A DNA stretch of 64,000 nucleotides, taken from positions 771 to 64,770 of the forward strand of contig DRGK01000012.1 in NCBI GenBank assembly GCA_011050075.1, read 5' to 3'. This document shows positions 4,673-52,897 of the stretch, piece by piece. Below the pieces are notes generated by a model. The model did not search any database and was not told where the DNA came from. It saw only the letters and a list, made by a program, of their open reading frames with translations. The DNA comes from Candidatus Jorgensenbacteria bacterium. GTDB taxonomy: Bacteria; Patescibacteriota; Minisyncoccia; UBA6257; GWB1-50-10. A program made the translations under genes and the position numbers. How positions within the stretch are numbered: the stretch's first letter is position 1; each line of letters starts with the position of its first letter.

Positions 4673-5257
4673 CTACACGATCCCGTTGTGTTTATCTTCT
4701 TCCTCTATCAGCTTTATCAAACCATCCAAAAGCTTTATCGGATCATCTGAAAATATTGTCTTTCCCATGCCGCGGTGTGATTTCTTCAAAATATCCTCAA
4801 TCATATCCGCTGTACCGCCAGTTTTTTGTAAAACACCCATTGGCTTTTTGTCTTCAAACCCAATAGTGAATTCATTGAGTGTTCCCATTCGACCGCAAAT
4901 GGTGATAATTGCATCTGAAGAGCGTGTCAAAATGAGGTTCCTACCGGAGTAATTAAAGCCGGTATAAACAACAACGTCGTGGTAATCAAGCGGCAGTTTA
5001 TAGGACTTCACGTGTGCCAACTTTGATGCGGCGGGCGAAAATCCAATAACAATACCTCCCTCCATCTTTGCTCCTTTTGCTGACCAGTACGGAATACCGG
5101 TGGTGGCACCGGTTACGAGCACGATCCCCCGCCGTGCCATTTCACGACCCAGCAATTCTGCTTTCTCGTGTGCATCAGGCGCACAATGCCCCGTTTCGGC
5201 CGCACCTGATACGCAGATTTTAATCGTCGGTTTAAAAATTTGTGGAACACGTGCCAT
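4673..5257 (-). CDS. LOG/SLOG-family Rossmann-fold protein (TIGR00725-like)
   Basis: ICGRMGTLNEF matches the GGxGTxxE motif of LOG-family proteins. Length is 194 aa. Confidence 0.55.
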   Translation of the reverse strand: MARVPQIFKPTIKICVSGAAETGHCAPDAHEKAELLGREMARRGIVLVTGATTGIPYWSAKGAKMEGGIVIGFSPAASKLAHVKSYKLPLDYHDVVVYTGFNYSGRNLILTRSSDAIITICGRMGTLNEFTIGFEDKKPMGVLQKTGGTADMIEDILKKSHRGMGKTIFSDDPIKLLDGLIKLIEEEDKHNGIV

Positions 5258-9359: not shown

Positions 9360-9773
9360 TTACTTTAATAGATAGGCCTTGAAGGCACGTTCGGTTTCCT
9401 CTGTAATGTTGTGTTGCTTATACTCTTCCGGTTCAATCCACTTATACGCATCATGAGCGCTGCTTAGCTTCACTTCACTATCACCGCTGAGTGAACACTC
9501 AAAAAATATCCCAATAATTTGAATGCGCTCACCGTTAATCTCCGGACGCCATTCTCCAACGTGGAAAGGTTTGCCAACTTTTACGCGTAATCCAGTCTCC
9601 TCAAACACCTCTCTTTTAACAGCGTCATCGTATTGTTCTCCCGGCTCAATTTTACCGCCGGGGAAATCATACTTTCCTTTCTGAGTACCTCCCGCATACC
9701 TCATTGATTCCCGAATAATGAGTATTTTATCCCTGTGAAAAATAACCGAGCGAACAGCTGTAAATTGCTTCAT
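9360..9773 (-). CDS. NUDIX hydrolase
   Basis: The Nudix box is GGKIEPGEQYDDAVKREVFEETGL. Confidence 0.8.
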   Translation of the reverse strand: MKQFTAVRSVIFHRDKILIIRESMRYAGGTQKGKYDFPGGKIEPGEQYDDAVKREVFEETGLRVKVGKPFHVGEWRPEINGERIQIIGIFFECSLSGDSEVKLSSAHDAYKWIEPEEYKQHNITEETERAFKAYLLK

Positions 9774-9779
9774 GGTCTT

Positions 9780-10526
9780 TTATTTACTTGGTCGCCGTAT
9801 GATTAATTCCTCTTTAGGTTCTCGTTGCTGTAGGTTTTGCACGATCCTTTCTACAACAAAAGATGGTTGCATGTATTTGTCTATATCTTCCGGTTTCTCT
9901 TCGTCAAAGAGATTCGTCTGCATACCACCCGGGTAAATCGATATGACGGTAATCCCCGAGTCCTTAGTTTCCTTACGAAGCGATTTCGTAAATCCAACCG
10001 CTGCATACTTACTTGCGCAGTACCCGGATGAACCGGACCGTCCTTCCAATGCGCTCGTAGAGAGAATATTAATAATCATACCGCCGTTCTGTTTTCGCAT
10101 TTGAATCAGTGCTACTCGTGAACCATACATGGTGCCAAATAGGTTTACCTCCATCATGTCGTGCACCCGTTTCATGTCCAGTTCCTCTATTGGCCCATGC
10201 GGGATCCATGCACCTGCATTATTGATCCAGATATCAATACGGCCGTACTCGCGAACTACATCACGAGCAAGACTTTCTACATCATTCTCTTTTGTAACGT
10301 CTGCTGCAATTGCAAGTGCGCCAAGCTCCTCAGCTACTTCCTGTAGCTCCTTCTCCGAGCGTGCGCTTATTACCACTTTCGCCCCCTCTTTTGTAAATGT
10401 CTGCGCAAGTTCTCTGCCGAGTCCCTTACTCGCTCCCGTAATTACAACTACTTTATCTTTTAGTTCCATATCAAAAAAGATAGCGCCGTACGGCAATACT
10501 GTAAAGTTACTTTTTTTATGCACCAC
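9780..10526 (-). CDS. SDR-family short-chain dehydrogenase/reductase
   Basis: TGASKGLGRELA matches the cofactor-binding motif, and YCASKYA is the catalytic YxxxK. Confidence 0.8.
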   Translation of the reverse strand: MVHKKSNFTVLPYGAIFFDMELKDKVVVITGASKGLGRELAQTFTKEGAKVVISARSEKELQEVAEELGALAIAADVTKENDVESLARDVVREYGRIDIWINNAGAWIPHGPIEELDMKRVHDMMEVNLFGTMYGSRVALIQMRKQNGGMIINILSTSALEGRSGSSGYCASKYAAVGFTKSLRKETKDSGITVISIYPGGMQTNLFDEEKPEDIDKYMQPSFVVERIVQNLQQREPKEELIIRRPSK

Positions 10527-10530
10527 TTAA

Positions 10531-10562
10531 ATAAAAAGCCCGAGTGTTTCAACTCGGGCTTT
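10531..10562 (-). terminator. Rho-independent terminator downstream of the PurA-like gene (minus strand)
   Basis: A hairpin agcccgagt/actcgggct is followed, on the minus strand, by TTTTATTT. Confidence 0.6.
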
Positions 10563-10565
10563 GGG

Positions 10566-11657
10566 TTACCGCCGAAGCCGGCGTAACATATTTAAACGAT
10601 AGGGTTCGAAATCAACCGTGGTACGCGGTCCAGTTTTCACAAGCATCACCTGTACCTGCGTTAGCTGCTCCAATCTATCAATGAAGTCCTCGACTGGTTT
10701 AGTGAGAATGTCTGATTCGTGCATTCCCCAATCGAGATAGTCGGCAAAGGTAACCGCGAGTTCCGTCGGTCGATTTATTCGCGTTGCCCTCACAATACCC
10801 TCATTACTGAATGTAGCCACGCGCCTAACGCGATTGGTAACCGACGTCCTCTCAGTGAGTAGATGAGGCGCGTCTGCTTGGGCAGTCACATCCTCCCACG
10901 TCAATTCCTGAGAGTCGGGGCCAAAAGGACCGCTCTGCCCAGCCACACGAATTGGGTACGTTCGCACTACACCGATGGCGCGTACCGGAAACTCATGCAA
11001 ACCAACCCCTATACCCGCAGCAAGTGCCGCGACGGTTGTGTCACGACTCGTAACGTATGGGAAGTATCCGTGGTCAAGACTCAAGCCAAACCCCTGTGTC
11101 CCCTCTACGAGCACTATGCAATCATCTTCCAGTAAGGTATTTATCACATCTGTTGTATCGCAAAGATATGGTTGCAGCTCAGCAACGTCACGCGCCAATA
11201 CGCATGACTCCTTGCGCAGAACTTTATCAGCTGCCGCCCGGCCAATTCCTTCTCCCGACTGTGCAGAGGTACTGCTGATGCGTACAGCTAGATCACTGTC
11301 TTGTTCGACTCGTTTCTGTTCCTCAGTAATCACGTGCGCCCTATAATCAATACGCAGGCGATGTACAACCGGCAGAAATTTCTCAATAGCAGTTACTTCC
11401 TGGAATAGGAGACTTACATCCAGTAAGGCGTTAATGCCAATAATCAACTGTGCGTGCGGATTAATCCACACCGATGGCAGTTGGCGCATTATGAAACGCT
11501 CATCGTGATAGTAAATCGTATGTCCCGCATTAGCAGCACCAATGCGCACGCCCGCACTCACTGCAGGAGAGAGGTACTCGGTAATTGCGCCTTTCCCCTC
11601 AGAGCCGAATTGCATACCGAACACAATCCATATTTCTCCGAAACGCTCTTTGTTCAT
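10566..11657 (-). CDS. Adenylosuccinate synthetase-family protein, short form (363 aa); divergent P-loop
   Basis: PurA family motifs are present: GMQFGSEGKG (P-loop), ANAGHTI and EGTQGFGLSLDHGYFPYVTSRDT. The canonical GDEGKG is GSEGKG here. The TTGRxRR block is divergent (TSVTNRVRR). Confidence 0.6.
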   Translation of the reverse strand: MNKERFGEIWIVFGMQFGSEGKGAITEYLSPAVSAGVRIGAANAGHTIYYHDERFIMRQLPSVWINPHAQLIIGINALLDVSLLFQEVTAIEKFLPVVHRLRIDYRAHVITEEQKRVEQDSDLAVRISSTSAQSGEGIGRAAADKVLRKESCVLARDVAELQPYLCDTTDVINTLLEDDCIVLVEGTQGFGLSLDHGYFPYVTSRDTTVAALAAGIGVGLHEFPVRAIGVVRTYPIRVAGQSGPFGPDSQELTWEDVTAQADAPHLLTERTSVTNRVRRVATFSNEGIVRATRINRPTELAVTFADYLDWGMHESDILTKPVEDFIDRLEQLTQVQVMLVKTGPRTTVDFEPYRLNMLRRLRR

Positions 11658-11760
11658 TAATAAACTCCTTCAGTCTATTTACTGGTAATGTTCTACTAAT
11701 CTTATACTACAACACCAGTATATGTGTCAATAATACGCTCTTGCTGTTATATGCTTTTCA

Positions 11761-13002
11761 CTATCCCTTATTTATATTTTGCAGCAATTCTTTCACCGTC
11801 TGCACCTCATCCCACGGTTGTTTTTTGCCGTTCGGACCGTAAAACCACTTCTGGCTGCCAATGCCGGTAATTATTACAATATCTTTTTCGCGTGCGATGC
11901 TTAGCGCTTTTTTAATAGCTTCCGTGCGGTCAATAATCTCATACACCTTCTGCGGTTTTTCTGGCGACTCGGCAATACCGCGCTTCATATCTTCAATGAT
12001 CGCACGCGGGTCTTCGTCATACGGGTCTTCACTTGTTAGAATTACCACATCACCGTAGCTCGCAGCAATTTTACCATGCTCAGGACGCTTCCACGTATCC
12101 CGACCGCCTCCAGCAGCTCCCAAAACACAAATGAGGTGTGAGGAGTCAGTAAAGTCGTAGTTCGTACGGAGGTTTCGATAAACGGCAGTCAGCGACTCAG
12201 GTGTATGAGCATAATCAACGACAACCGAAAACGGCTTCTTTTGCACAAACTCCATCCTCCCCGGCACACCGGGGAACTCGGCGAGCGCTCGCTGTATCGT
12301 GCCGCGATTAACACCACGCAGGCGTGCTAAAGCAACTGCTGCTGCAACATTTTCAACATTAAAATCGGCACGCAGCCACTCCTGATGATATGTTGCCCGT
12401 AGTCCTTCTACCATCTTGAACACGTCATTCTTGCTAAACCATATCACCTCACCACTCCGTACGCGTTTCGCAACTTCATAAAACAACATTGAATCCTGGT
12501 CGTCTCTGTTAATGAGAAAATACTGCCGTGATTTTTTTGAGTGTTTCAGCGAACGAAAAAAATTGAGTTTTGCTTCCCGATATTTTTCAAATGAACCATG
12601 CGCTTCAATGTGTTCTGGATGAAGGTTCAAAAAAACAGCAACATCCCAGTCAATAAATCGATGACGGTGCTGTGTGGTTCCTTGGGAGGTTACCTCAACA
12701 AACGCATACGTACATCTTTCAGTGGCGGCTCTGTGCAAAAACCGCTGCAAACGCCACCGTCCAGGCATAGTGTTCGACCATTCATTGGGTTCTGTTTCGG
12801 TACCGATCTTCTGACGCACAGTGGACAGAAGCGCTGTCCGTTCGCCCGCCGCTTCAAAAATAACATTCATGAGTTCTATGACTGTTGATTTTCCTTTTGT
12901 TCCGGTCACCCCGACCACAAATAATCTCCTACTCGGGCGACGATATCGGATACTTCCCGTCCAGGCGAGTACGGTGTGATAAAAAGAACGGAGCATATTC
13001 AT
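11761..13002 (-). CDS. Mur ligase family protein, MurE-like (UDP-MurNAc-tripeptide synthetase), short N-terminus
   Basis: The P-loop is GVTGTKGKST. The C-terminal ILTSEDPYDEDPRAI resembles the MurE DNPR/DDPR region. Length is 413 aa. Confidence 0.55.
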   Translation of the reverse strand: MNMLRSFYHTVLAWTGSIRYRRPSRRLFVVGVTGTKGKSTVIELMNVIFEAAGERTALLSTVRQKIGTETEPNEWSNTMPGRWRLQRFLHRAATERCTYAFVEVTSQGTTQHRHRFIDWDVAVFLNLHPEHIEAHGSFEKYREAKLNFFRSLKHSKKSRQYFLINRDDQDSMLFYEVAKRVRSGEVIWFSKNDVFKMVEGLRATYHQEWLRADFNVENVAAAVALARLRGVNRGTIQRALAEFPGVPGRMEFVQKKPFSVVVDYAHTPESLTAVYRNLRTNYDFTDSSHLICVLGAAGGGRDTWKRPEHGKIAASYGDVVILTSEDPYDEDPRAIIEDMKRGIAESPEKPQKVYEIIDRTEAIKKALSIAREKDIVIITGIGSQKWFYGPNGKKQPWDEVQTVKELLQNINKG

Positions 13003-17810: not shown

Positions 17811-18365
17811 ATGCAGCCATCACAACACATAAAGCGCCAACGATCAGCAGGGTTTATTCTATACCGCACGGTACGTGAAGGTGTGCTGTTTCTTCTGTTG
17901 TTTCATAGTGGTAAGTACTGGAACTTTCCAAAGGGTAAAATAGAGAACGAAAAAGAAAATGTGTGGGACACGGCGATCAGAGAAATTGAAGAGGAAACAG
18001 GATTAACTAAACAGAGTCTTTATTTTAGGAGAGGATTTAAAACAACCGAGCAGTACACATTCACTGAACGCAAGCAAAAAATTACTAAACACGTTACGTA
18101 TTTCCTCGCGGAGTCAAAAAAGACAAATATCATCATCAGCCCGCGCGAACACCGCGGGTATGGCTGGTTCACGTATCGAGAGGCAATTGGTTTTTTAAAA
18201 CACAAGAATGCCCGCAGGAATCTAAAAGAAGCATATGACTTTATTCAAAAGACAGGTGTACGCCGTCGTCAAGACGGTTCCGCGCGGGAACGTCATCACG
18301 TACGCAAAAGTGGCGCAGCACATAAGCCATCCACACGCCCACCGAGCAGTCGGCAACGCGCTTAA
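17811..18365 (+). CDS. NUDIX hydrolase
   Basis: The Nudix box is GKIENEKENVWDTAIREIEEETGL. The basic C-terminal tail may be read-through of low significance. Confidence 0.7.
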   Translation: MQPSQHIKRQRSAGFILYRTVREGVLFLLLFHSGKYWNFPKGKIENEKENVWDTAIREIEEETGLTKQSLYFRRGFKTTEQYTFTERKQKITKHVTYFLAESKKTNIIISPREHRGYGWFTYREAIGFLKHKNARRNLKEAYDFIQKTGVRRRQDGSARERHHVRKSGAAHKPSTRPPSSRQRA

Positions 18366-20328: not shown

Positions 20329-20952
20329 ATGGGAGACAACTCTTCTGGTCCCTTCATTCAGATGCACATGCTTCCCGGCGGCATTAAACCCGTACGAAAG
20401 TCCGAGGGAGCGGTCGGGTACGATGTTGCAATCCGGGCAATTGTTTCACCAACAGATATGGATCCGGATAACTCTGTACTAAGAAAGGTGTTATTCGATT
20501 TCAATTCGGTTCCTGATGATCCTGCCGTCGCCGGTCATGTTCATAACCTCGGCAACGAACTAATATACCGGATGGGGCCGAGAGAAACGGTCCTTGTCGG
20601 AATTGGTTTCGTAACCGTCTTACCCATAGATATATTCTACTGGATCACGCCGAGAAGCGGTCTTGCGGGAAAGTACGGTATCACCGTCACGAATGCCCCC
20701 GGAACCGTTGACTCTGACTACCGCGGTGAAGCAGGGGTGCTCGTGATAAACTTGAGAAGTAATGACCACTTCGACCTGAAGTACAAGATGCGCATTGCGC
20801 AGATCATCTTCCAGCATGCGGTACATCCTCAGATTGAGGAAATCGAGAACTACGAAGATCTCGCTGAATCGGTCCGCGGTGCAGGTGGATTCGGATCAAC
20901 CGGTCTCCGCGATGAGGTCCAGCCCCATCAGGTTCTACAGAATAGAAACTAG
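20329..20952 (+). CDS. dut: dUTP diphosphatase / dCTP deaminase-family protein
   Basis: The motifs PRSGLAGKYG and GTVDSDYRGE (dUTPase motif III-like) are present. At 207 aa it is longer than the minimal dUTPase. Confidence 0.65.
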   Translation: MGDNSSGPFIQMHMLPGGIKPVRKSEGAVGYDVAIRAIVSPTDMDPDNSVLRKVLFDFNSVPDDPAVAGHVHNLGNELIYRMGPRETVLVGIGFVTVLPIDIFYWITPRSGLAGKYGITVTNAPGTVDSDYRGEAGVLVINLRSNDHFDLKYKMRIAQIIFQHAVHPQIEEIENYEDLAESVRGAGGFGSTGLRDEVQPHQVLQNRN

Positions 20953-23912: not shown

Positions 23913-26900
23913 TTAACGCTTCTTGAGCGTTAGTTTGATCTCGTAGGGCCCAATGCGCATCTGCCTACTCAACGTATGTATGCGCAACGGCGTGTAGCGA
24001 ACCTCTGATGCGCTTATTTCTTCTTGAATTGTTTTCATATATCTCCGCATCGTGGCATCAAACAACTTTGGTGCATCAATGCCGAGTGCAATACTATCTC
24101 CCGGCTCAAGTTCCGCGTCCTGGCGCATTCGTTGTATGGTCCGTACAAGCTCACGAACCCACCCTTCTTCCTCAAGCTCATGTGTAAGTACGGAATCAAG
24201 CACTACATCCTCTTTCTGGCGGGCATTAAACAGAACCCGCTTCACATTCACCTCTTCACGCAGTATCTCTTGAAGTTCTTTATCCTTCCGTACCATGGGT
24301 GCGCGCTTGATTGAAAGCGATGCAAGCGGCTGACGCACCTTCATGCTGATTAGTTCGCGCTTTGCGAGTCCCGCACGCGCGAGCTCGCGCACCTCTTTCA
24401 TTGCTTTCAAAAGACTTGTATTGCTCAGGCCTTGTTCTTGTTTGGTCCAGTCCTCCAGATGCACCGATTCTTCAAACTCGTAGCCGGTTATTTCTGATGT
24501 AAGTGAACGATACAACGCCTCAGACAAGAACGGCGTAAATGGTGCAATTAATTTACTCACTCCCAGCAACACGTACCCAAGCGTGTAAGATGCGTCCGCA
24601 TGAGCACGCGTGCTTTCCGGTCGCTGAAAACGGCGACGGGAACGACGAATATACCAGCGTGAGAGGTCTTGCACCAGTTCTTCAATGAGACGCGCTGCCC
24701 CCATCACATCATACACATCCAGCTTGCGTGTTGATTCTTGCGTAACCTCTGCAAGCCGCGCAAGGATCCATGTATCCAGAACATGCCGCACCTCTCTTTT
24801 CTGCAGTGAAACACGCTTTGCGCGGTATGTGCGGAAAAATACAAAAGAATTATACAAAAGCATGACAAAGTTCGCAGACACTTTGCGCAGCTCTTTTTCA
24901 TCAAATCGTTTCGGTTCGCCCGGCGCGTTCACGGTATAGAAATACCAGCGCACTACATCAATCCCGAACTTGTCCGCAATCTCCCACGGATCAACCATAT
25001 TACCGCGCGACTTGGACATTTTGCGTCCGTATGAATCAAGCACCAAGCCATGCGAGATAACATTTCTATATGGGCTTTCCTGTTTTAAAAGAACCCCTAT
25101 GGCAAGTAATGAATAAAACCAGCCGCGTGTTTGATCAACACCTTCGGCAATAAAGTCGCCGGGAAAATCTATGCAGTTCTCAGGAGCGGGTATTTGTGCG
25201 CCGCTCTTCTTTATACAAGAGAATGGATAGTGTGCCTGAGCAAACGGCATCGCACCGGAATCAAACCACCCATCAATAACTTCCGGCACGCGCTTCATCT
25301 TCTTGTCGCACGCATTACACGGAAATATTACCGTATCCACATACGGCCTGTGAAAGTCCGCAAACCCCCATTTATTGCGCGGCGCCTGCATATATACAAC
25401 TTCGCGCGATTCACCGGTACCAAAGAAATCATATATTCCCGATTGTTCTTGTTCTTGTTTTACCAGAAGCGTCTGTTCTTCTCCCCAGCTGCGCATCACC
25501 GTCTCCAGCATCCATAGCGGATACTCATGAGAGATAATAAGTATGGTTTTGTTTTTATATTTCTTTTCAATCTCAGTAATTGCTTGGTACGTGCGCTTGG
25601 CTAAATCACGAAGATGTTCCCCTTTCGGAGGACGCTTGCTGAACTTCTCAGTGGGCTTTGCAAAAAACACATGATACTTTTCAGGGCCTCCTCCATGAAA
25701 TGTACCTACGTTAATTTCACGCAGGCGTATGTTAGTTGTAACCGGTATACCCAATGCCTTCCCTATAATCTCTGCTGTCTCCTTCGTTCGGCGAAAATCG
25801 GAAGAAATAATTACGTCAATCTTATCTTTCCGTTTTTTAAAAAGCTTTACTGCCTGTTCTACTTGCACGCGTCCTGCAAGCGTTAGCCCAAACTTATCTT
25901 TGTCTTTCGGGTTGCTGTTAACAATGTTCTTTGTATTGCTCTCCGCAAGCCCGTGCCGCATGAGCACGTACGTACTGCGCGCACCGCCAAGCCGATCACT
26001 GAGTTCGCGGTAGCTGCCTATTACCTCAACCGCATCACAACCAGAACACGTCCAGACAGGCAGTGGCGTTGCCCAGTATCGCTCGCGAGAGAGCGCCCAG
26101 TCTTTTACCTCACGCAGCCATTCGCCAAACCTGCCGTGTTTCGTGTGTTCCGGCACCCAACGCACCTGTTCATTCGCAACCAAAAGTTTTTTGCGCAGTG
26201 CGCTCATTTTAATGAACCATGAATGGCGGGCATAGTAGAGTATCGGCGTATCGCACCGCCAGCAAAACGGGTATTCATGCTCGTACTGTTCTGTTTGTAA
26301 AAGGTTGTTCTGTTTTTTAAGCGTGGCTATAATCTTCTTTTCCGTTTCCTTGTCTTTCACAAAAAGTCCGCGCAACTCCGGTACGTCTTTTGTAAAACGC
26401 CCCGTTTCATCAACGGTGTGGTGCTGCGGCAAACCAACATCAACACCGAGCCGGTAGTCGTCTTCACCATACATCACCGCCGTGTGAACTACGCCGGTGC
26501 CTTCATCAGTAGCAACAAAGTCCGCATGGTACACCCGATACGCCTTATGGTCATTTTGAAACTCTTTAATGATAAAGAGCGGTTCGTAGCGGAGACCCAG
26601 CAAGTCACGGCCGCGTATTTCACGGCCCACACGACCGAAGGTTTCCGCTAGCGGAGAGTTTTTTGCGTATATTAAACGCTCCCCGTTCTTCTCTATTTCT
26701 ATATATGCAATAGTTTCGCCAACAGCAAGCGCCACGTTACCTGGCAAGGTCCATGGAGTTGTGGTCCATGAGAGAATGTATGTATTATTGCCGGATGCTT
26801 TTTTTCCAATCTTCTGCCGCGGCTTCATTTTAAACTTTACATAAACAGAAGTATCGCGCACAGTATTGTATCCTTGTGTCAGTTCGTGTGATGAGAGCGC

Positions 26901-27464
26901 CGTTCCGCAACGCGGACACCATGGCAACACCTTGTATCCCTGATAGAGTTTCTTGTCTTCCCAAATGCGCTTCAGTATCCACCAGACGCTCTCCATAAAC
27001 GAGTTCTCATATGTAATGTACGGGTGCTCTAAATCAATCCAGAACCCCATACGCTCCGTCAATTTTTCCCATTCATCTTTATATTTCCAGACCGACTCTC
27101 TGCACTTCTGATTAAACTTCTCAATCCCATACGCCTCAATTTCTTTCTTGGAATTAATGCCGAGCGCTTTTTCAACTCCAAGCTCCACAGGCAGCCCATG
27201 CGTATCCCACCCGCCACGACGGGTAACAAAAAATCCGCGCATCGTTTTGTATCGCAGAATAATATCCTTAAACGAACGCGCAAGTACATGGTGGATGCCC
27301 GGACGGCCATTCGCCGTCGGCGGTCCTTCATAAAAAACAAATTTCTTCTTTTTTCTGCGCGCTTCTTGGGTTTTTTTGAAAATATGGTTCGTGCGCCAAA
27401 AATCAAGAACACGTTGCTCAATGTCAGGTAATAAAAATCGATCTTCTCTTTTAAATATCGGCAT
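23913..27464 (-). CDS. ileS: Isoleucyl-tRNA synthetase (type 2, eukaryote/archaeal-like) carrying a ~200-aa inserted histidine-phosphatase (PGAM-family) domain
   Basis: PPTANGRPGIHHV is the type-2 IleRS HIGH region and KMSKS is present. Residues ~495-700 (about nt 25365-25982) contain YVLMRHGLAESN, VIISSDFRRTKETAEII and ILIISHEYPL. These are the RHG, SPLxRAxxTA and SHG signatures of histidine phosphatases. They lie between LPVWTCSGC and HRPYVD...KMKRVPEVIDGWFDSG. Confidence 0.8.
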   Translation of the reverse strand: MPIFKREDRFLLPDIEQRVLDFWRTNHIFKKTQEARRKKKKFVFYEGPPTANGRPGIHHVLARSFKDIILRYKTMRGFFVTRRGGWDTHGLPVELGVEKALGINSKKEIEAYGIEKFNQKCRESVWKYKDEWEKLTERMGFWIDLEHPYITYENSFMESVWWILKRIWEDKKLYQGYKVLPWCPRCGTALSSHELTQGYNTVRDTSVYVKFKMKPRQKIGKKASGNNTYILSWTTTPWTLPGNVALAVGETIAYIEIEKNGERLIYAKNSPLAETFGRVGREIRGRDLLGLRYEPLFIIKEFQNDHKAYRVYHADFVATDEGTGVVHTAVMYGEDDYRLGVDVGLPQHHTVDETGRFTKDVPELRGLFVKDKETEKKIIATLKKQNNLLQTEQYEHEYPFCWRCDTPILYYARHSWFIKMSALRKKLLVANEQVRWVPEHTKHGRFGEWLREVKDWALSRERYWATPLPVWTCSGCDAVEVIGSYRELSDRLGGARSTYVLMRHGLAESNTKNIVNSNPKDKDKFGLTLAGRVQVEQAVKLFKKRKDKIDVIISSDFRRTKETAEIIGKALGIPVTTNIRLREINVGTFHGGGPEKYHVFFAKPTEKFSKRPPKGEHLRDLAKRTYQAITEIEKKYKNKTILIISHEYPLWMLETVMRSWGEEQTLLVKQEQEQSGIYDFFGTGESREVVYMQAPRNKWGFADFHRPYVDTVIFPCNACDKKMKRVPEVIDGWFDSGAMPFAQAHYPFSCIKKSGAQIPAPENCIDFPGDFIAEGVDQTRGWFYSLLAIGVLLKQESPYRNVISHGLVLDSYGRKMSKSRGNMVDPWEIADKFGIDVVRWYFYTVNAPGEPKRFDEKELRKVSANFVMLLYNSFVFFRTYRAKRVSLQKREVRHVLDTWILARLAEVTQESTRKLDVYDVMGAARLIEELVQDLSRWYIRRSRRRFQRPESTRAHADASYTLGYVLLGVSKLIAPFTPFLSEALYRSLTSEITGYEFEESVHLEDWTKQEQGLSNTSLLKAMKEVRELARAGLAKRELISMKVRQPLASLSIKRAPMVRKDKELQEILREEVNVKRVLFNARQKEDVVLDSVLTHELEEEGWVRELVRTIQRMRQDAELEPGDSIALGIDAPKLFDATMRRYMKTIQEEISASEVRYTPLRIHTLSRQMRIGPYEIKLTLKKR

Positions 27465-45301: not shown

Positions 45302-46114
45302 TTATAAACATTTTTTTAGACCTTGAAGACCAGGTTTTTTAAATTTTTCGTCCTCAACACTTATTTTATAAGCGTAAACAATACATTTTAGTTCCTCGAT
45401 CTGAGGAGTGCTTGTTGCGCCCGGGACCGTATTTTTTGGGTAATAAACCCATTGGTAGTAAATACCAGCTCCAACCGTAGGTTTTACAGCTGTATTCCAG
45501 TCCCCCCACTGGGTAGGACAGGGACTACTAATTTCGCTCCGATAACACTTCGGTATTTTCATATCACTGGACCACGTGACCGGCGAAGCACAATCACTCA
45601 TTATATCTTTAGGACAACCTGCTGTTAGACCATACCCAAGACCGGGAACACAACATTGCGGGGTCGCTTCAGGGTCATCGGGATCTTTTATGGGCCGTTT
45701 CCCCTCCCCACATTCGTTTTTGACAGGATTTTTTTCTCCGCAGGAATATATAGTAATCCCCTCTCCACCCGGTGGACTGAGATCTACCAGCTCGGGATTT
45801 ATAGTGTTTAGAATTGTGTAAGCGCCGAGGAGCAGTACCAAGCCCCACACAGCTGAGGTTATAATATCTTTTCCCTCACGCTGCTTATCTTGACTCCCTC
45901 CCGAGACCACGTAGTAAATAGCCCCAATAACTATCATTACTACGGCAGCAAGACCGGCAATAGCGACCGCTGACATATAGAAACTGTTAATATACTCAAC
46001 AATGTTTGTTGAACCCGCTTCAGGAAGCTCAAAAACTACGGGTTCTTGCGCCCACACGACAGTTAACGGGACAAGAAGAATAAACAGGAAAAAGAGAAAA
46101 ATTAGTTTTTTCAT
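45302..46114 (-). CDS. Pilin-like protein: a signal peptide, two adjacent hydrophobic helices, then a ~150-aa domain with 10 Cys
   Basis: The signal peptide is MKKLIFLFFLFILLVPLTVVWA. The TM pair is MSAVAIAGLAAVVMIVIGAIYYVV / IITSAVWGLVLLLGAYTIL (a VirB2/TrbC-type arrangement). The Cys-rich C-terminus follows. Confidence 0.4.
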   Translation of the reverse strand: MKKLIFLFFLFILLVPLTVVWAQEPVVFELPEAGSTNIVEYINSFYMSAVAIAGLAAVVMIVIGAIYYVVSGGSQDKQREGKDIITSAVWGLVLLLGAYTILNTINPELVDLSPPGGEGITIYSCGEKNPVKNECGEGKRPIKDPDDPEATPQCCVPGLGYGLTAGCPKDIMSDCASPVTWSSDMKIPKCYRSEISSPCPTQWGDWNTAVKPTVGAGIYYQWVYYPKNTVPGATSTPQIEELKCIVYAYKISVEDEKFKKPGLQGLKKCL

Positions 46115-46120
46115 AGATTT

Positions 46121-46813
46121 CTACCGTATCGTTAATCTAACATTTGACCTTGTTGTTTCAATCGAATTAAGGGAGTTTGACGTTATATTAGATATTAGAA
46201 CTTCCTCTCCTGATAAATAGGGGGAATCACCTATATCTAAAACAAGGCGATTACTTCTCTGCTTTGGCTGATTCTGATTATCAATGCTCCAGAAGAACTC
46301 GAAATTATCAAAAGAGACAACGTTGAAAAAATAAGGCACCGCATGGAAAACTATCTGCCTCTTTCTAAACACTATATTGTTAGGACTGGGCATTTCAATT
46401 ACCGTGCGCTGGCCTGAAACGGGAACCGTGAAAGAACCCTCGATTCTTTCTCCGTCTAAGTCAATGCTCATTCGTACAAAATACTCATCGCCGCGCAGCT
46501 TGTTGATTTTAAGTACTATTTCACTTAGTCCGCTGCCGCGACTGAAAAACCTTCCGTCTATATACCATATAAAATTTGCCTTAGAAGTATCTACAAACCT
46601 GTTGTTTCGTATAACGGTTGCTGAGATGACAATAGAGGTATTAATAGTGGCGGCTGCTTTGCCTGAGTAGTTTGACGGATAAAAATTATGGGCCTGCCAC
46701 GTGAAAATAACTTGTGGTGAGGGCGCCTGAGCGAACGCCATTGGTAGAAGGTAGCCAGCAACGAGAAGCCCGCAACAGACAGTAAATATTAATGTTTTAT
46801 GAAGTGTACTCAT
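46121..46813 (-). CDS. Secreted hypothetical protein
   Basis: An N-terminal signal/TM is present. Length is 230 aa. Confidence 0.4.
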   Translation of the reverse strand: MSTLHKTLIFTVCCGLLVAGYLLPMAFAQAPSPQVIFTWQAHNFYPSNYSGKAAATINTSIVISATVIRNNRFVDTSKANFIWYIDGRFFSRGSGLSEIVLKINKLRGDEYFVRMSIDLDGERIEGSFTVPVSGQRTVIEMPSPNNIVFRKRQIVFHAVPYFFNVVSFDNFEFFWSIDNQNQPKQRSNRLVLDIGDSPYLSGEEVLISNITSNSLNSIETTRSNVRLTIR

Positions 46814-47151
46814 TTTGCTGGTTTGACTACCGACCTTACCATTTTTTGCGCTAATTTAGGGTTATTGTGAAGTCTTGTTTCAATTATAAATGCGGCAAAC
46901 GTAGTAGGAACGAAAGGAAGTACATTTGAAAACTGTTTTATTAATTGCCGCTCCAGACCCATCGCTTTTTTACCTCCCTTGAACATCAACCATAATGTGG
47001 TGCTGAAGCTTGTTGCCGCCTGAAGTAGCGTAGCAATAAACCACCCTATGGCCGGGATAATGTCCAGCAATGCTGAGACAATATCTATTGAGAGCGTAAA
47101 CATTCCTCCGATAACCACCTCCGCTGTTGAAAATTTACTATGTTCGCCCAT
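46810..47151 (-). CDS. Small integral membrane protein, hypothetical
   Basis: 113 aa with 2-3 TM helices. It overlaps its neighbours by 4 nt. Confidence 0.4.
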   Translation of the reverse strand: MGEHSKFSTAEVVIGGMFTLSIDIVSALLDIIPAIGWFIATLLQAATSFSTTLWLMFKGGKKAMGLERQLIKQFSNVLPFVPTTFAAFIIETRLHNNPKLAQKMVRSVVKPAK

Positions 47152-47154
47152 AAT

Positions 47155-48912
47155 TTATTTTTGTTGTGATTTTTTCAACTCAAGTACCTGCTCGGGGTCC
47201 GTGGTAATTATCCGGTCTTCAGTATAAGAAGCTACTATTTTCATTGCAACGTGTTTAAGCCCTACAAAAAACAATCCCTCTCCTACACGCGCTTCTAATA
47301 AGAATGACTTCTCACTGTCAGTGAGACCGAAAGCGTCTCCGACTGCATTTATACTTGCAGGAGACTGTTTCATAAGCAATTGAAGTGAAGAATTGGTAAT
47401 AATAGGTTTTCCGTACTCCGAGTTAAAGAAATCCTCCACGTTTTGAGTGATAGTGGTAAGTCCAAGGTAGTATTTTCTAGCCCGTTTTGCCAGTCCGAAA
47501 AGAAATGCAGCGCTATATTTGTACTGCATCATCCACCACGCTTCATCTATAATGAGCAACCGGCGCTTGAGCTCAGAACGCACAAGCGTCCATACAAAAT
47601 TAAGCACAATATACATTGCGATAGGCCGCAACTCTTCTTCAAGGTCACGAATTGAAAACACGATGAAGCGATTGGATATATCAACATCCGTAGCATTATT
47701 TGTGAATCCGGCATACGAACCACGCACATATTTTTCCAAGCGCTGGGCAATTCCTTCCGCCCCTTCGGTATTCTGGAGAATGGTTTGCAAGTCTTCCAAG
47801 AGGGGCGGGTCAAGCTCCTTATTTGTACCAAAAGTTTCTGCAGTAATATCGCGTGCGGCGTATGTTTCAATGATTGCACGGTCGAGCAACGAATCTGCCT
47901 CCGGAGAAAGCTCTCCAACCATAAGTTTAATAAGTCCGGTGAGGTTTAAAACGTGCGATTTGAATACGTTCGCCGGATCCTCGTCTTCCGGGATAAGCGG
48001 TATGTCAAACGGGTTAATGTTATGCGGCGAAGTGAGTGATATCTTGAAAAAACTGCCACCAACGGCATTCGCGAGATTTTGATACTCATTTTCCGGGTCA
48101 ATAACAATAACGTCGGTGCCCATCATGAGCGTTCGCAGTATTTCTAGTTTTGTTGCGTACGACTTTCCGGCGCCTGACTTGGCGAACACAACTTGATTTG
48201 CATTTGGTAGCGCAAAGCGATCGAAAATAATCAGCGAATTATTGTGCATATTGACTCCGTACAACACCCCCTCATCAGAGGTAAGGTTAGGGGACACAAA
48301 AGGAAAAAGAGAGGAAACGGGACCGGTATTGAGAGACGTATGTATGCTTAATTTATCTTGACCAACGGGGAGTACGGTAGTGAAGCCGTCCATTTGCCGA
48401 AAGAGCGCAGGTTTGATATACACTAGTTTTGCCTCAAGCGTGGAAATAATAACCTGCTCAAGCTTGTTGAGTTGTTCAATACTTGAGCCGTACACAGTCA
48501 TATATACTCCAACCTTAAAGAGCCGTTCAGTTCCTTGTTGGAGATCGTCGCGAAGTTTCTCCACGTCGCGATACGCGGTCTCAAGTCGAGGACTGCGCAC
48601 CAACCCCTTGTCTTGGCGTTCGGAGAGCTCTGCTTCTATGTGCGCCACTTTCTTTTGAAAGCCGCGTAGCGCGAGAGGAGTATCCATAGGATGTACGTGA
48701 ATACTGACGTCCATCATTTCGGCGAGGTTGATAATGGGAGAAAACCAACCGCTTGAGATATATCGCGGGTAGGTAAAAATAAAGAATGTTTTCGCAAAAT
48801 AATTACCCAACTTGATATGATTTGATGTTTCCTCAATTCCCGCTGGCGCAACGACATTAACAATATCCTCTTCTAAAGGCTTATTTGGCTGAGGTACTTT
48901 AATATCAGGCAT
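47155..48912 (-). CDS. VirB4/TrbE/CagE-like secretion ATPase (ATPase portion)
   Basis: The Walker A motif is FAKSGAGKSYATK. The Walker B motif LLIIDEAWWMM is the DEAW signature of VirB4-family ATPases. Length is 585 aa. Confidence 0.55.
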   Translation of the reverse strand: MPDIKVPQPNKPLEEDIVNVVAPAGIEETSNHIKLGNYFAKTFFIFTYPRYISSGWFSPIINLAEMMDVSIHVHPMDTPLALRGFQKKVAHIEAELSERQDKGLVRSPRLETAYRDVEKLRDDLQQGTERLFKVGVYMTVYGSSIEQLNKLEQVIISTLEAKLVYIKPALFRQMDGFTTVLPVGQDKLSIHTSLNTGPVSSLFPFVSPNLTSDEGVLYGVNMHNNSLIIFDRFALPNANQVVFAKSGAGKSYATKLEILRTLMMGTDVIVIDPENEYQNLANAVGGSFFKISLTSPHNINPFDIPLIPEDEDPANVFKSHVLNLTGLIKLMVGELSPEADSLLDRAIIETYAARDITAETFGTNKELDPPLLEDLQTILQNTEGAEGIAQRLEKYVRGSYAGFTNNATDVDISNRFIVFSIRDLEEELRPIAMYIVLNFVWTLVRSELKRRLLIIDEAWWMMQYKYSAAFLFGLAKRARKYYLGLTTITQNVEDFFNSEYGKPIITNSSLQLLMKQSPASINAVGDAFGLTDSEKSFLLEARVGEGLFFVGLKHVAMKIVASYTEDRIITTDPEQVLELKKSQQK

Positions 48913-48939
48913 ATGATTTGTGACGAGTAAAGAGAACTA

Positions 48940-49593
48940 TCATTCTTTTGTTTGTGATTCAGCTCTGCGACGCTCGATAAGTTGAGGATTGTAGAGATTG
49001 TAGTAGAGCTCTGTCAACTCATCATCATTAAGGGGGGTTGTGTGTAAGCCAATCTGCTCAAGTCCGGCGGTAACCTCGTCAACGCGATAGTTAAGCTGCT
49101 CAACATGTTTAGGGGCACCGTCTGTTACTTGCTTGTCTTTGTTTTGTTTTTTTGATTTTGAGAATAGCCCGAGAATATTCTTTTTTGCTTGCTCAACAAC
49201 CACAATGGGATCATATGGAATCACGACAAAGAAGTCTTTTGAGATGATAGGGTTTTTTTCGACGAATGAACTGATAAATTCACCATACTCTTCTATTTGC
49301 AGCTGAAGTAGTTCGTTTGGTTCTTCCACTTTCCGCGCTTCAATTTTTTCAAGGTATGCGCTGATATTTATCTTGCGTGAATGAACAAAGAACTGTATAG
49401 AGAAATCTAAAGCGTTCAGAAAGCTTTGAAAACTATTCAGTGTGAGTTGCTGCTCTTCTTGGGATTTGAGGTCAAAATTAATGCCATTTACCATTAATAC
49501 CTTACGCAAGCCACCTTGCTTGAGGTATAAAACACCGTTTTTAATTTCTTTTATAACAACAAATTGTTGCGATGCCGCTATCTGTTCAGCCAT
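48940..49593 (-). CDS. Hypothetical protein; possibly the separated N-terminal domain of the VirB4-like ATPase
   Basis: 217 aa, ending 24 nt upstream of the ATPase ORF. The combined length (~800 aa) equals a full-length VirB4. Confidence 0.3.
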   Translation of the reverse strand: MAEQIAASQQFVVIKEIKNGVLYLKQGGLRKVLMVNGINFDLKSQEEQQLTLNSFQSFLNALDFSIQFFVHSRKINISAYLEKIEARKVEEPNELLQLQIEEYGEFISSFVEKNPIISKDFFVVIPYDPIVVVEQAKKNILGLFSKSKKQNKDKQVTDGAPKHVEQLNYRVDEVTAGLEQIGLHTTPLNDDELTELYYNLYNPQLIERRRAESQTKE

Positions 49594-49636
49594 GGTTATT
49601 TCTATTGTACTTGTTTACCTGAATACTTTATAGGGT

Positions 49637-50152
49637 TTATGTATTTTCTTTATAGTCAACTCGTTTTGCAAGTCGCCTTTCGCCGGTGAGATAAGAAACA
49701 ACCTGATACTCATTTCTTTGCCCTCTTTGCTTATCTTTTTTCCTGAAAAGTGGAATGGCGCCAGTGGTAACGTTCAGTGCTGCGGTTTTTATCTTTTCCT
49801 GCAGGCTCATGTTTTGTCGCATGACGTGGATTCTTTCAGCGCTTGAGGCGTCTATAGTTACAGTTGGCAACTCTCGTTTCCATGCGTAGCGTTTAGGTTT
49901 CTGCCAGTACGTGAGTGCGGCGCCAATGAGTGATGGTAGGGGCAAGCCATTTATTTTTACGAACGCTAAACTTAAACCTACCGCACCGACAATTGCGGCA
50001 ATAAGAAAGGATAAAAAAGGAATATTTATAGTGTAGAACGCGAGAATACCTATAGCGGCCGCGCCGCCTATGTAGAAAAACTGAGTGAGCGTAAGCGGCC
50101 CAACAATTTTAGGTTTTTCTTCAATAAATTGTGGAACTTGAAACTGGGGCAT
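49637..50152 (-). CDS. Small 2-TM membrane protein in the VirB3/PrgI-like position upstream of VirB4
   Basis: 171 aa. The hydrophobic hairpin is IGGAAAIGILAFYTINIPFLSFLIAAIVGAVGLSLAF. Confidence 0.35.
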   Translation of the reverse strand: MPQFQVPQFIEEKPKIVGPLTLTQFFYIGGAAAIGILAFYTINIPFLSFLIAAIVGAVGLSLAFVKINGLPLPSLIGAALTYWQKPKRYAWKRELPTVTIDASSAERIHVMRQNMSLQEKIKTAALNVTTGAIPLFRKKDKQRGQRNEYQVVSYLTGERRLAKRVDYKENT

Positions 50153-50176
50153 GAAATAAGTTATAGGTGTTGGGTT

Positions 50177-51055
50177 TTAGGTATTAGTGTTACGAAGGTC
50201 AACGGTGTTTCCATCAAGTTTCGGTCCTCGTTCCTTTTTCTGCTTCGCAACCCCACCGCTTTTTAGTGAGGGCGACCGTTGCGTCCCTTGCTCACTTTTT
50301 TGTGGTGGGATGTTTTGATACGGTATAGCCCCTTTGCTCGCAGGACCGAGTTTAGTGAGGTCTATGAATCCTTCTCCCATCATACCACCCGGCACGGGCG
50401 TACGCAGTTCACTATAGTGAACCGTGTGACTACCTCCTTTCTTTTTTGGTGTAGTAATACGAGCGACAGGCGTCTCGCTTTTTATTACTCCTTTTTGTTT
50501 GAATATGCCGGGGGAAAGAATAAAACTTCTCCGCGGAGTTTTTGTTTTTGAAACAGAAACCCGCTCTTCTTGGTGGATGATCTTTGGTTCCTGCGACGTA
50601 ATTGGTGCCAGCGGAACAATTTCCTCCTCTTTTATTTTTGACACTCGTTCTTTGGTGACACCTTCCTTCTGGTAAGTCGTGGCTTTAGTTTTTTTAAGTG
50701 CGATACCTCCTTCTACGTCAATGAGGTCAATGTTAATATCCCAGTCGGAGAGGGACGCTTCTATTGGCTTCAGTATATTTTCTTTGAGCTCTATAGCAAT
50801 GGATTTTGCTTTTTCCGGTCCAATGGTGAGTTCTTGAGATATTGCATCAACGAATTCTGCCGCGTGAAGGTCTTTAACTTCTAATCGGAGAAGAAGCCGC
50901 GGAATAATACGAACCCGTTCTTCTCGAAGCCCCAGTTTTTCATTAAGCTCCATCATAAAGTAGGTGGTTTTCTCTGAACTAATCCAACTGCGGATATCCT
51001 CAGGGACTTCTTGGAGAGTATTCTGGAGAGAACTTTGTGCGAGTGTAATAGCCAT
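50177..51055 (-). CDS. Hypothetical cytoplasmic protein of the cluster
   Basis: 292 aa with no TM helices and a Lys/Pro-rich C-terminal half. Confidence 0.35.
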   Translation of the reverse strand: MAITLAQSSLQNTLQEVPEDIRSWISSEKTTYFMMELNEKLGLREERVRIIPRLLLRLEVKDLHAAEFVDAISQELTIGPEKAKSIAIELKENILKPIEASLSDWDINIDLIDVEGGIALKKTKATTYQKEGVTKERVSKIKEEEIVPLAPITSQEPKIIHQEERVSVSKTKTPRRSFILSPGIFKQKGVIKSETPVARITTPKKKGGSHTVHYSELRTPVPGGMMGEGFIDLTKLGPASKGAIPYQNIPPQKSEQGTQRSPSLKSGGVAKQKKERGPKLDGNTVDLRNTNT

Positions 51056-51057
51056 AG

Positions 51058-52890
51058 TTATGCTTGCAAATTAGGATTAGCTTGGATGAATTTCCTGTTC
51101 GCTCTAAGTTGTTTGCGTTCCTCGGCGGACAACTCTTTCTTGTTCATCTTTTTCTCTCCTTCTTCCCATCCTTTCTCCAGGGCTTCTTTTTGTTCTGGAG
51201 AGCCGTGTGAACTAATGCGCTTGAGTTGAGGATGTGAAAGACTAGTGAAGACCTCAGGATTTTTGAGTGCACCCTTGTCTATGTCTGCTGCCTTGTCTGC
51301 CCTAATACCGCTTACAGTTTCCTGAATAGTTGAGCCAAGTTGCTCTGCATAGTCGGGTCTGGTCGATAAGATGTTTTTTGATGTCCCGGTGTCACGTACG
51401 CCTTTGAATAACCTGTCTCGGCTTTCCGGGCTTATTTTATCCATCCGTCCGCGTTCAGCAAGCTCTGCCGCGGTTGCTGCAGCATTAATTGGATTAGCCA
51501 TAGGCCCTGCAAACCCTGCTCTATTGTCAAGATCTGCGTTCGTAATATTTCCAAGCCCTTTCTGACGTTCCTTAACAATATCAGCCAAGCCCGCCTTTGC
51601 TTTACCGATACGTTCAGCAGTTCCCCTGAACGCTCTTCCTACACCAGGAATTCGAGCAAGTCCGCCCGCCGCTCGCTCTGCAAAAGAGGTTGTTTCACCC
51701 CTTTCGTTGGTCTTGGTTCCTGCAGTGAGGGCTCTTCGGCCGAGCGCTCCACCAAGTGCTCCGGCGGCTCCAAGGGGAACTTTTGCTGCCCCAATCGCCT
51801 GTTTCTGAGCCCACTTCCGGCTCGTTTTACCTGCTCCTTGCGCCATCTTTATTGCCGCCCCAGCACCCGCAATACCCATTTTATTAGCCGCAATAAGCCC
51901 TCCCATAAGCAGTGCAGCAATGACCAACATTTGGGACCCCTGTCCCAGAACACCCCCAAGTTCGGGCTGTATATTGGGAATGCTTGACCTATCTGCAAGA
52001 GCCTCCGCGCTCGTAAGTGTAAGAAAGATGAAAAAAGATATTGCGGGCGCAAAGAATACCCATTTAAAGAAACTGCTCCACCAGTCATTAAAATATTTTG
52101 ATAGACCTGGAAGTATCCAGAATAACCACGTTATGGGAGCTAAAATAATAAGAAGTGATAGTATAATAAAACGAGCAAGGAGCATAAATGCGAGAGCAAA
52201 AAAGACAAATGCGGTGAGACCGGTAAAAATAACCGTAAAAACAGTTTTTGTAATATCCGTAATTGCTGCTTCACTGAAGAAAATACTTCCCCCCGCTTTT
52301 GCGCTGGAAGGATCAGGCGGAAGAGGGTCCTCACCCGCACCTGCGACACCCTCAAGATTAAGACGTTGCGGCTGAAACGCGCCGGTAATGACCGTAGAAA
52401 TGCTTGAGGTTTCCGCGCCGATTCTTTCTTTAAGAAAAAAATTTGTAAATACGTTGGAGAAATTGATGATAGTAATTGCTATAACGAAGCTGAAATTTAC
52501 GATGATAGCCGCGGCAATGAGCTTTGGGAGTAATTTCTTAGCTTCATACTCTTTGAAGCGAATAATCGTTGTGAAAGCAATAATGATTATTACTAAGACA
52601 AAACCAAGATTAGCAATATCTCGCACAATACCCCACCCAATCGTAATAAGAGTATTCTCATCGCTAAGGAAATCCATATTAAGACCGAAGGCTATATCAA
52701 CAAGTCCTCCCGCAAAAGAGAGGAGGATGCCGATAATGAAACCTGCGATCGCGCCGAGTATCTTAATAACAAAAGCAACGGTGTCACCGCCTATCTTGAA
52801 GAGCTGACCGTGTACCGGTTGCGGTAAGAGAAGAAGTAGTGCCAAGAGACCGAAGCCTATAGATGTCTTATTTTTTAGAAAACGGTTCAT
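51058..52890 (-). CDS. Polytopic membrane protein, VirB6/TrbL-like
   Basis: 610 aa with an N-terminal signal, at least 6 TM helices and a long Ala/Gly/Lys-rich cytoplasmic C-terminal tail. This architecture is typical of VirB6-family channel subunits. Confidence 0.4.
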   Translation of the reverse strand: MNRFLKNKTSIGFGLLALLLLLPQPVHGQLFKIGGDTVAFVIKILGAIAGFIIGILLSFAGGLVDIAFGLNMDFLSDENTLITIGWGIVRDIANLGFVLVIIIIAFTTIIRFKEYEAKKLLPKLIAAAIIVNFSFVIAITIINFSNVFTNFFLKERIGAETSSISTVITGAFQPQRLNLEGVAGAGEDPLPPDPSSAKAGGSIFFSEAAITDITKTVFTVIFTGLTAFVFFALAFMLLARFIILSLLIILAPITWLFWILPGLSKYFNDWWSSFFKWVFFAPAISFFIFLTLTSAEALADRSSIPNIQPELGGVLGQGSQMLVIAALLMGGLIAANKMGIAGAGAAIKMAQGAGKTSRKWAQKQAIGAAKVPLGAAGALGGALGRRALTAGTKTNERGETTSFAERAAGGLARIPGVGRAFRGTAERIGKAKAGLADIVKERQKGLGNITNADLDNRAGFAGPMANPINAAATAAELAERGRMDKISPESRDRLFKGVRDTGTSKNILSTRPDYAEQLGSTIQETVSGIRADKAADIDKGALKNPEVFTSLSHPQLKRISSHGSPEQKEALEKGWEEGEKKMNKKELSAEERKQLRANRKFIQANPNLQA

Positions 52891-52897
52891 TTATTTA

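Follow-up and report, generated by a model that had tools for sequence, protein, structure and literature searches.

Natural DNA containing 2-aminoadenine (Z) has been reported exclusively from phages (2026 paper), and the phage enzymes that use deoxyguanosine monophosphate (dGMP) to make its precursor are short homologues of the adenylosuccinate synthetase PurA. They comprise PurZ, an ATP/dATP-dependent enzyme of Vibrio phage phiVC8, cyanophage S-2L and Acinetobacter phage SH-Ab 15497 (PDB 6FM1, 7ODX; family model NF038379), and PurZ0 of actinophages (Gordonia phage Ghobes/Archimedes, Arthrobacter phage Wayne; PDB 7VF6). On the cellular side, the closest described enzymes are the short archaeal PurA proteins (P. 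horikoshii PH0438, PDB 2D7U/5K7X; M. jannaschii PurA; NF003295). Asp13, in the numbering of E. coli PurA, is conserved in 99% of cellular PurA, and Ser takes its place in 100% of 147 phage PurZ/PurZ0 sequences (PMC12884076). The gene described here occupies positions 10566..11657 on the minus strand of a 64,000-nt stretch of DNA from Candidatus Jorgensenbacteria bacterium (assembly GCA_011050075.1, contig DRGK01000012.1, positions 771 to 64,770), referred to below as the window. Its 363-aa product, the query, is a bacterial member, from the candidate phyla radiation (CPR, or Patescibacteria), of the Ser-type branch of the adenylosuccinate synthetase superfamily, a branch whose characterised representatives are PurZ and PurZ0 from phages. 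Judging from its residues and relatives, it is probably, though far from surely, a chromosomal PurZ0-type enzyme that would condense (d)GMP with aspartate using GTP.

The open reading frame starts with ATG, and its product matched the Adenylsucc_synt family PF00709 with E 4e-52 in a domain profile search. The first-pass annotation had reported the fold signatures of PurA together with the variants GSEGKG and TSVTNRVRR, and all of these were found in the 363-aa frame: the P-loop GMQFGSEGKG (residues 14-23; 11589..11618, minus strand) carries Phe17 and Ser19 at the places of PurA Trp11 and the catalytic Asp13, the Ser19 codon being nucleotides 11601-11603, while ANAGHT lies at residues 42-47 and EGTQGFGLSLDHGYFPYVTS at residues 185-204. 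The length difference of about 70 aa from bacterial PurA given there is 69 aa when measured against E. coli PurA (432 aa). An AF2 model of the query reached a pLDDT (predicted local confidence) of 94.4, and superposition gave TM (template modelling) scores of 0.86 (0.86/0.92, root-mean-square deviation 1.7 A) to Pyrococcus PurA 5k7x, 0.85 (0.85/0.85) to PurZ0 7vf6, and 0.80-0.81 to PurZ 6tnh/7odx. Archaeal PurA and PurZ0 fit the query about equally, and the fold was consequently dropped as a discriminator between the two.

Active-site residues were compared in an alignment of the query with PurA of E. coli and P. horikoshii, PurZ of phiVC8, S-2L and the Acinetobacter phage, and PurZ0 of Ghobes and Wayne. 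At nine positions that tell PurZ/PurZ0 from PurA (E. coli D13, E14, T128, G298, G302, R303, R304, K331 and D333) the query reads SESTNRVFD and differs from Ghobes PurZ0 (SESTNKVFD) at one variable position, while E. coli PurA reads DETGGRRKD and P. horikoshii PurA DETGGRRMD. A systematic screen identified 27 alignment columns that divide Asp-type from Ser-type sequences, and the query was Ser-type at all of the fixed ones. The same states were then counted in the CPR family (120 clusters at 90% identity listed, out of 2469 matches) and in 80 viral relatives from IMG/VR. D13 to S, K267 to R and T271 to I were each present in 100% of both sets (120/120 CPR and 80/80 viral), against D, K and T in the Asp-type references, and G298 to T was present in 119/120 CPR and 80/80 viral relatives, against G. 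Because Ser stands at the aligned residue in 120/120 family members, it is not a quirk of sequencing or of one lineage. The remaining catalytic and IMP-contacting residues (N38, H41, T129, R143', Q224, T239 and V273) were all conserved in the query; PurZ has the same residues, and they are hence non-discriminating.

Two regions bear on the nucleotide that the enzyme would accept. Query F17, S19 and T271 match F12, S14 and T262 of phiVC8 PurZ, which form the pocket for the guanine 2-amino group, and within the CPR family these positions are Y/F in 110/120, S in 120/120 and T in 119/120 members. In the phage enzyme the three residues make room for dGMP's 2-amino group, and the substitution S14D ends selectivity (bioRxiv 10.1101/2025.10.22.683976). 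The second region is the loop RTYPIRVAGQSGPFGPDSQELTW (10896..10964, minus strand), similar to IRVGGTSGGHYPDQEELTWEQL of phiVC8, which contains R232 (E. coli K267), I236 (E. coli T271) and a PurZ-type insertion of two residues after the ribose-contacting Val (E. coli V273). This insertion is common to the CPR family, PurZ0 and PurZ, which have IRV-xG-xSG where PurA has TRV-GAGPF, and in the query it reads IRV-AG-QSG. In PurZ the insertion draws the Val toward C2', and together with withdrawal of the residue equivalent to R303 it has been tied to a preference for 2'-deoxy sugars (PMC8342488). The aspartate loop of the query, ERTSVTNRVRR (residues 269-279; 10821..10853, minus strand), replaces the G-x-T-T-G-R-R-R-R of PurA and has Thr271 in place of E. 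coli G298 and Val277 in place of R304, a position that is V, I or L in the CPR family. The position of E. coli R303, a residue in contact with Asp and the 2'-OH, varies among family members; the query keeps Arg there, as does S-2L PurZ (R244). Taken from the residues and the relatives of the query, a guanine nucleotide would be the substrate rather than inosine monophosphate (IMP), and the PurZ-type loop with the non-conserved R303 position suggests a preference for the deoxy sugar.

The phosphate donor is addressed by the motif TFAD (10740..10751, minus strand), in which the alignment with the references places the guanine-specifying Asp306 (E. coli D333). Asp is found at this position in 119/120 CPR members, in Ghobes (SFAD) and in Wayne (TMLD), while phiVC8 (NFCN) and S-2L (NFAQ) have lost it. 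PurZ0 is reportedly the GTP-using type and PurZ the ATP-using one. Since the query, like PurA and the PurZ0 references, has the guanine-specifying Asp, GTP is the likely donor, an assignment that leans on this pairing; the wording of PMC12884076 pairs donors and enzymes the opposite way round. The mechanism would most likely be the two-step one of PurA and PurZ. The reaction would begin with phosphorylation of the 6-oxo group of (d)GMP by GTP; exchange of this phosphate for aspartate would then produce N6-succino-2-amino-(deoxy)adenylate, from which an adenylosuccinate lyase would yield (d)ZMP. The later steps and the physiological role of the enzyme are predictions.

Set beside the known systems, the query is most like PurZ0 in its active site: both are built on a short scaffold (about 360 aa) and have Asp13 replaced by Ser, E14, S128, T298, a hydrophobic residue at R304, the PIRV-xG-xSG insertion and the Asp at D333. 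They differ in that the query is only ~35% identical to PurZ0, lies on a bacterial chromosome instead of in a phage, and has a longer loop after V273 and a four-residue insertion in the nucleotide 5'-phosphate loop (RISSTSAQSGEGIGR; 11238..11282, minus strand) that is typical of the CPR clade. It also has no dutZ, dmtZ or DUF5664 partners, whereas dutZ occurs in every PurZ0 phage (PMC12884076). PurZ differs from the query by T14 and by N or Q at D333, where the query has E and D, and by the DatZ and MazZ neighbours that the query locus lacks. Archaeal short PurA shares the compact scaffold without the bacterial insertions and a similar GTP pocket (TMLD/KTGP-like), yet it lacks an insertion after V273 and carries W11, D13, T128, K267, T271, G298, R303 and R304; of these features the query shares only R303.

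Homologues at 50-96% identity carried source names from the Patescibacteria/CPR (Tagabacteria, Paceibacterota, Pacebacteria and Saccharimonadales), and the identical protein was found on six contigs. Of the four displayed, one is from a metagenome of marine sediment, one from an NCBI metagenome assembly (GCA_004196275.1), one from a further ENA metagenome and one from a run assembled by Logan. Other assemblies with a gene of this type are GCA_041743505.1, GCA_964517285.1, GCA_016853205.1, GCA_035583355.1, GCA_900206355.1 and GCA_964520445.1. A homologue search seeded with a Saccharimonadales member returned no cultivated Saccharibacteria carriers. When 1.84 billion cluster representatives were searched exhaustively, 524 clusters matched at E <= 1e-30. 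Among the best 150 cluster representatives at 50% identity Asp13 was present in 0/150; the position was Ser, with Gly, Gln or Arg as rare exceptions.

Neighbour-joining (NJ) trees were built from 184 and 228 sequences with 200 and 100 bootstraps. The Asp-type set consisted of E. coli PurA and eight archaeal short PurAs, all archaea being Euryarchaeota, and the Ser-type set of the CPR clade, PurZ, PurZ0, hundreds of metagenomic proteins and viral proteins from IMG/VR. The split between Ser-type and Asp-type sequences received 100% bootstrap support and still 82% once all 27 diagnostic columns had been masked, which rules out convergence of the active site by itself as its source. The CPR clade was supported at about 0.75-0.85, and its placement inside the Ser-type radiation was not settled by these trees. 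The query scored 375 bits against a hidden Markov model (HMM) of viral Ser-type proteins and 226 bits against one of archaeal Asp-type proteins, and the viral profile was preferred over the archaeal by 115/115 CPR members; in both the trees and the HMM comparison the viral set had been chosen by similarity to the query. The CPR family shares its substitutions internally while standing apart from archaeal PurA, and it has no demonstrated function in the AMP pathway. The suggestion of the first-pass annotation that the protein is a neofunctionalised PurA-like enzyme accordingly gained ground, in that it has the full PurZ0-type residue signature and groups with phage PurZ/PurZ0, from which an altered substrate would follow; the PurZ-like role, called speculative there, is now the reading best supported by signature and phylogeny.

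Several observations weigh against a PurZ0-type enzyme, and some of them favour an ordinary short AdSS (adenylosuccinate synthetase) of archaeal type, which would convert IMP, Asp and GTP to adenylosuccinate and in which Ser and the linked changes would be a lineage-specific variant serving G-to-A or hypoxanthine-to-A salvage in a cell that scavenges RNA or DNA. The best NCBIfam match of the query was archaeal PurA NF003295, at 246.4 bits itself below its cutoff of 368, while the PurZ model NF038379 gave 216.4 bits and also failed its cutoff (300). By sequence, P. horikoshii PurA was the solved structure that the query matched best (E 1e-56), followed by the structures of PurZ and PurZ0 from phages; pairwise identity was 38% to Pyrococcus PurA versus 35% to PurZ0, and the fold fit was slightly better to the former. 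The CPR homologues are publicly annotated as adenylosuccinate synthetase, and they conserve His41, Asn38, Gln224, Arg143, Thr129, the GTP pocket and the Asp-loop RR. The gene is moreover a single stand-alone chromosomal gene beside housekeeping genes in eight different bacterial contexts and has no Z-cluster partners in any of them, a pattern in keeping with a housekeeping role. Phage PurZ genes are accompanied by those of dATP/dGTP-pool enzymes and often of a dedicated polymerase. The PurZ accessory genes DatZ, MazZ/DUF550, DutZ and DpoZ, as well as purB, were absent from the 64-kb window, where a dUTPase-like gene 9 kb away was the only match, and from 165 kb of CPR-clade loci, and none of DatZ, MazZ, a Dut-like gene, PolA or purB stood beside any of the 13 loci. 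The trees were distance-based (NJ rather than maximum likelihood) with narrow sampling of the Asp-type, sugar specificity is not readable from sequence, the support for a guanine substrate of the CPR enzymes consists of sequence comparison, and the product of the query would be a dead end without a lyase.

A housekeeping AdSS nevertheless has to accommodate the loss, in 120/120 members, of an Asp that is 99% conserved in cellular PurA. It further has to explain about a dozen fixed states held in common with PurZ/PurZ0, among them those of the pocket for the guanine 2-amino group, and a grouping of the family with phage enzymes even in the masked tree. Most Patescibacteria are without de novo purine synthesis, and in 93% of Patescibacteriota genomes de novo nucleotide synthesis is missing (bioRxiv 10.64898/2026.06.21.733656), which leaves no obvious substrate supply for an IMP-dependent AdSS. 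Neither purB nor any other purine-pathway gene, such as one supplying IMP, was found near any copy, in the window or in the CPR flanks, the regions that the search covered. I regard a housekeeping AdSS as somewhat unlikely, while still the main rival.

A further alternative is that the query is an altered or non-canonical member of the family, which would act on another 6-oxopurine nucleotide (XMP, dIMP, or GMP for a ribo-Z metabolite), use another amino donor, or serve as a nucleotide-binding regulator. The failure of both curated cutoffs, the four-residue 5'-phosphate-loop insertion peculiar to the CPR clade and the variability of the E. coli R303 position within the family would be in keeping with it. 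Against this, the ligand-contacting and catalytic residues are invariant, bar those in PurZ-type states, the T-V-T and RR of the Asp loop are kept as in PurZ, and there was no evidence for a different chemistry, so that this explanation appears very unlikely.

The genomic surroundings of the gene are those of an ordinary bacterial chromosome. The window contains murC, murD, murE, murB, ruvA, ruvB, ruvC, clpB, polA, dnaA, dnaN and several tRNA synthetase genes, and the query gene is placed between murE/ruvA/murB and murD/murC. At 13 CPR-clade loci, covering 165 kb, and at a further bacterial locus of a more distant kind, the genes stood alone amid unrelated housekeeping genes. These observations bear on the possibility that the gene is not truly of CPR origin, being cargo of a prophage or mobile element or a mis-assembled viral fragment that acts for a phage. 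Real phages (L025, L028) are indeed among the nearest non-CPR relatives, and one tailed-phage sequence has the CPR-type loop insertion, which indicates exchange. The identical protein nevertheless recurs on six independent contigs, the neighbours are mur and ruv genes on a 64-kb contig with dnaA/dnaN, polA and tRNA synthetases, seven further members of the family have differing housekeeping surroundings that contain no phage genes, and the GC content around the gene is unremarkable. Prophage or contamination was rejected on this context and on the recurrence across samples, and phage cargo is hardly credible as an account of the gene.

The gene appears to be a transcription unit of its own, as had been proposed from the first reading of the sequence. 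A promoter-like site, TTGACA-18 nt-TATAAG (11701..11730, minus strand), lies in the 103-bp intergenic gap upstream; it is a consensus match only and was read off the sequence, since the final G of its -10 hexamer kept it out of the promoter scan's output. A Shine-Dalgarno sequence AAGGAG (11665-11670, minus strand) precedes the ATG by 7 nt, and directly past the stop codon there is an intrinsic-terminator-like hairpin (10535..10562, minus strand) with an 11-bp stem, 6 GC pairs and a following T-run. Downstream are an SDR (short-chain dehydrogenase/reductase) gene (9780-10526) and then a NUDIX gene (9360-9773; PF00293, E 7e-20). The earlier remark that a NUDIX hydrolase gene lies two genes downstream was thus correct as to position, but it does not serve as supporting context: NUDIX and SDR genes were not adjacent in seven other bacterial contexts and were ruled out as functional partners. 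A weakly similar NUDIX gene, 2.4 kb off, was seen in one other lineage only, and the NUDIX protein of the window is a generic MutT/NudG-like one under all equivalog cutoffs.

Accessory genes were searched by tblastn with DatZ (S-2L, phiVC8), MazZ, the Ghobes Dut-like proteins and gp51/52, the phiVC8 polymerase and PurB (from E. coli and from the metagenomic locus L022) as queries. Nothing turned up close to the CPR copies; the only match was a dUTPase/DCD-like (dCTP deaminase-like) protein of the window (20329-20952, plus strand), 9 kb from the query gene. Two more genes with possible roles in nucleotide metabolism, neither adjacent to the query gene, encode a LOG/TIGR00725-family protein that is a possible nucleotide N-glycosidase (4673-5257, minus strand) and a second NUDIX hydrolase (17811-18365, plus strand).

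Other features of the window were recorded alongside. The MurE-type ligase directly upstream (11761-13002, minus strand) has 413 aa, matched the murE model from position 76 on and is without the usual N-terminal domain. A class I tRNA synthetase of 1183 aa (23913-27464, minus strand) is IleRS-like (tRNA-synt_1, Anticodon_1, DUF5915), and a PF00300 His_Phos_1 match between its two tRNA-synt_1 matches suggests an inserted domain. Clusters resembling a type IV secretion system (T4SS) or conjugation system are typical of CPR genomes, and one is found at 45302-54697 (minus strand), with a T4SS pilin, a TraG/VirB4-like P-loop ATPase (47155-48912), PrgI-like and TrbL-like (51058-52890) proteins and several ORFans. 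A more divergent chromosomal Ser-type gene, encoding a protein (P0125) 43% identical to the query, occurs on another contig (L185:1815-8070; GCA_964520445.1, CAZFNU010000005.1), where it adjoins murB, as in the neighbourhood of the window; a gene for a Ham1p/RdgB-like non-canonical purine NTP pyrophosphatase and a NUDIX gene follow 4-5 kb downstream.

The viral relatives that were inspected lie in nucleotide and replication modules, which are phage Z-cluster contexts. A dUTPase-like gene (DutZ fold) was present at 41/80 of the IMG/VR viral loci and a family-A polymerase (PolA) at 40/80. The closest viral relative by tblastn (L025) was 43% identical to the query; in its module the PurZ-like gene is accompanied by RusA, a PD-(D/E)XK nuclease, an HD protein of the YfbR/DatZ family and a primase-helicase. 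Outside CPR, the 5'-phosphate-loop insertion of the CPR clade occurred, in the sequences displayed, only on contig L028 (7944-9014; IMGVR_UViG_3300044724_008842), whose Ser-type gene has it as IGSTSTIAREGIG. This contig is a tailed phage with a sheath initiator, baseplate J, tail collar and CHAP lysin, and it is a candidate CPR phage or a candidate case of gene exchange; the shared insertion indicates exchange between CPR genomes and phages.

Further arrangements were seen among the metagenomic relatives. On a 454-kb contig (L022:10001-13828; JGI 3300080719, Ga0671537_0000003), a Gly13-type PurA-like gene has immediately after it a DCD/dUTPase-like gene (306 aa) and then genes for a dNK-like (deoxynucleoside kinase-like) kinase and an adenylosuccinate lyase; by its predicted gene content this is a complete Z-pathway-like cluster. 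Nearby are a class II ribonucleotide reductase, a RadA/Rad51-like ATPase and a Hachiman defence pair (HamA and a DEAD helicase), and the contig could belong to a cellular, perhaps archaeal, genome or to a jumbo virus. A second recurrent arrangement is the fusion of an NMP/dNMP-kinase-like P-loop domain (AAA_18/ADK/dNK-like) to the N-terminus of a Ser-type PurA-like domain, found in P0151, P0168, P0176, P0193, P0257, P0262 and some 12 other representatives (510-570 aa), and at L023:4028-5740. The fusion suggests channelling between synthase and nucleotide kinase; the contig of P0193 is virus-like and also encodes ParB and a family-B polymerase of the protein-primed kind. Finally, P0270 (644 aa) joins a Ser-type PurA-like domain to a C-terminal dCTP-deaminase/dUTPase-like domain (PF22769) and so resembles the PurZ0-DutZ pairing in one polypeptide.

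PurZ, PurZ0 and a small set of archaeal sequences were known already. The latter are four basal, poorly resolved 'PurZ-related' sequences in which the catalytic position is Ser or Gly (Tong et al. 2023, cited after PMC12884076), and they are a cellular precedent for genes of this type, albeit an archaeal one of four sequences, as opposed to a large bacterial family here. What is new is a large, conserved, chromosomal CPR clade with a predicted active site that is completely PurZ0-type. The literature searched contained no mention of a bacterial or CPR Ser-type clade, the overlap with the data set of Tong et al. 2023 being unchecked, and searches combining Patescibacteria, CPR or Saccharibacteria with adenylosuccinate returned nothing relevant to the family.

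For annotation, the CPR genes may be a case of systematic mislabelling, in which they are taken as markers of purine biosynthesis although most of the phylum is without the pathway. Were the query to use IMP after all, the switch from Asp13 to Ser would not by itself define dGMP specificity. For the origin of PurZ, the clade offers slowly evolving cellular relatives between archaeal PurA and the phage enzymes, along with signs of exchange with tailed phages; it could be the cellular reservoir of phage PurZ0/PurZ, instead of or beside archaeal PurA, or it could be a domesticated phage gene. The PurZ pathway and Z-DNA have been treated as a phage speciality, and the CPR clade opens the question of Z nucleotides in cellular organisms. 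That some CPR bacteria make Z nucleotides by a PurZ0-type enzyme of their own and incorporate Z, in part or in full, into their DNA is quite unlikely on present evidence. If true, Z-containing genomes would for the first time be known from cellular organisms; protection from host or phage nucleases would be a plausible benefit, as would the conversion of surplus scavenged guanine nucleotides into an adenine equivalent for AT-rich genomes.

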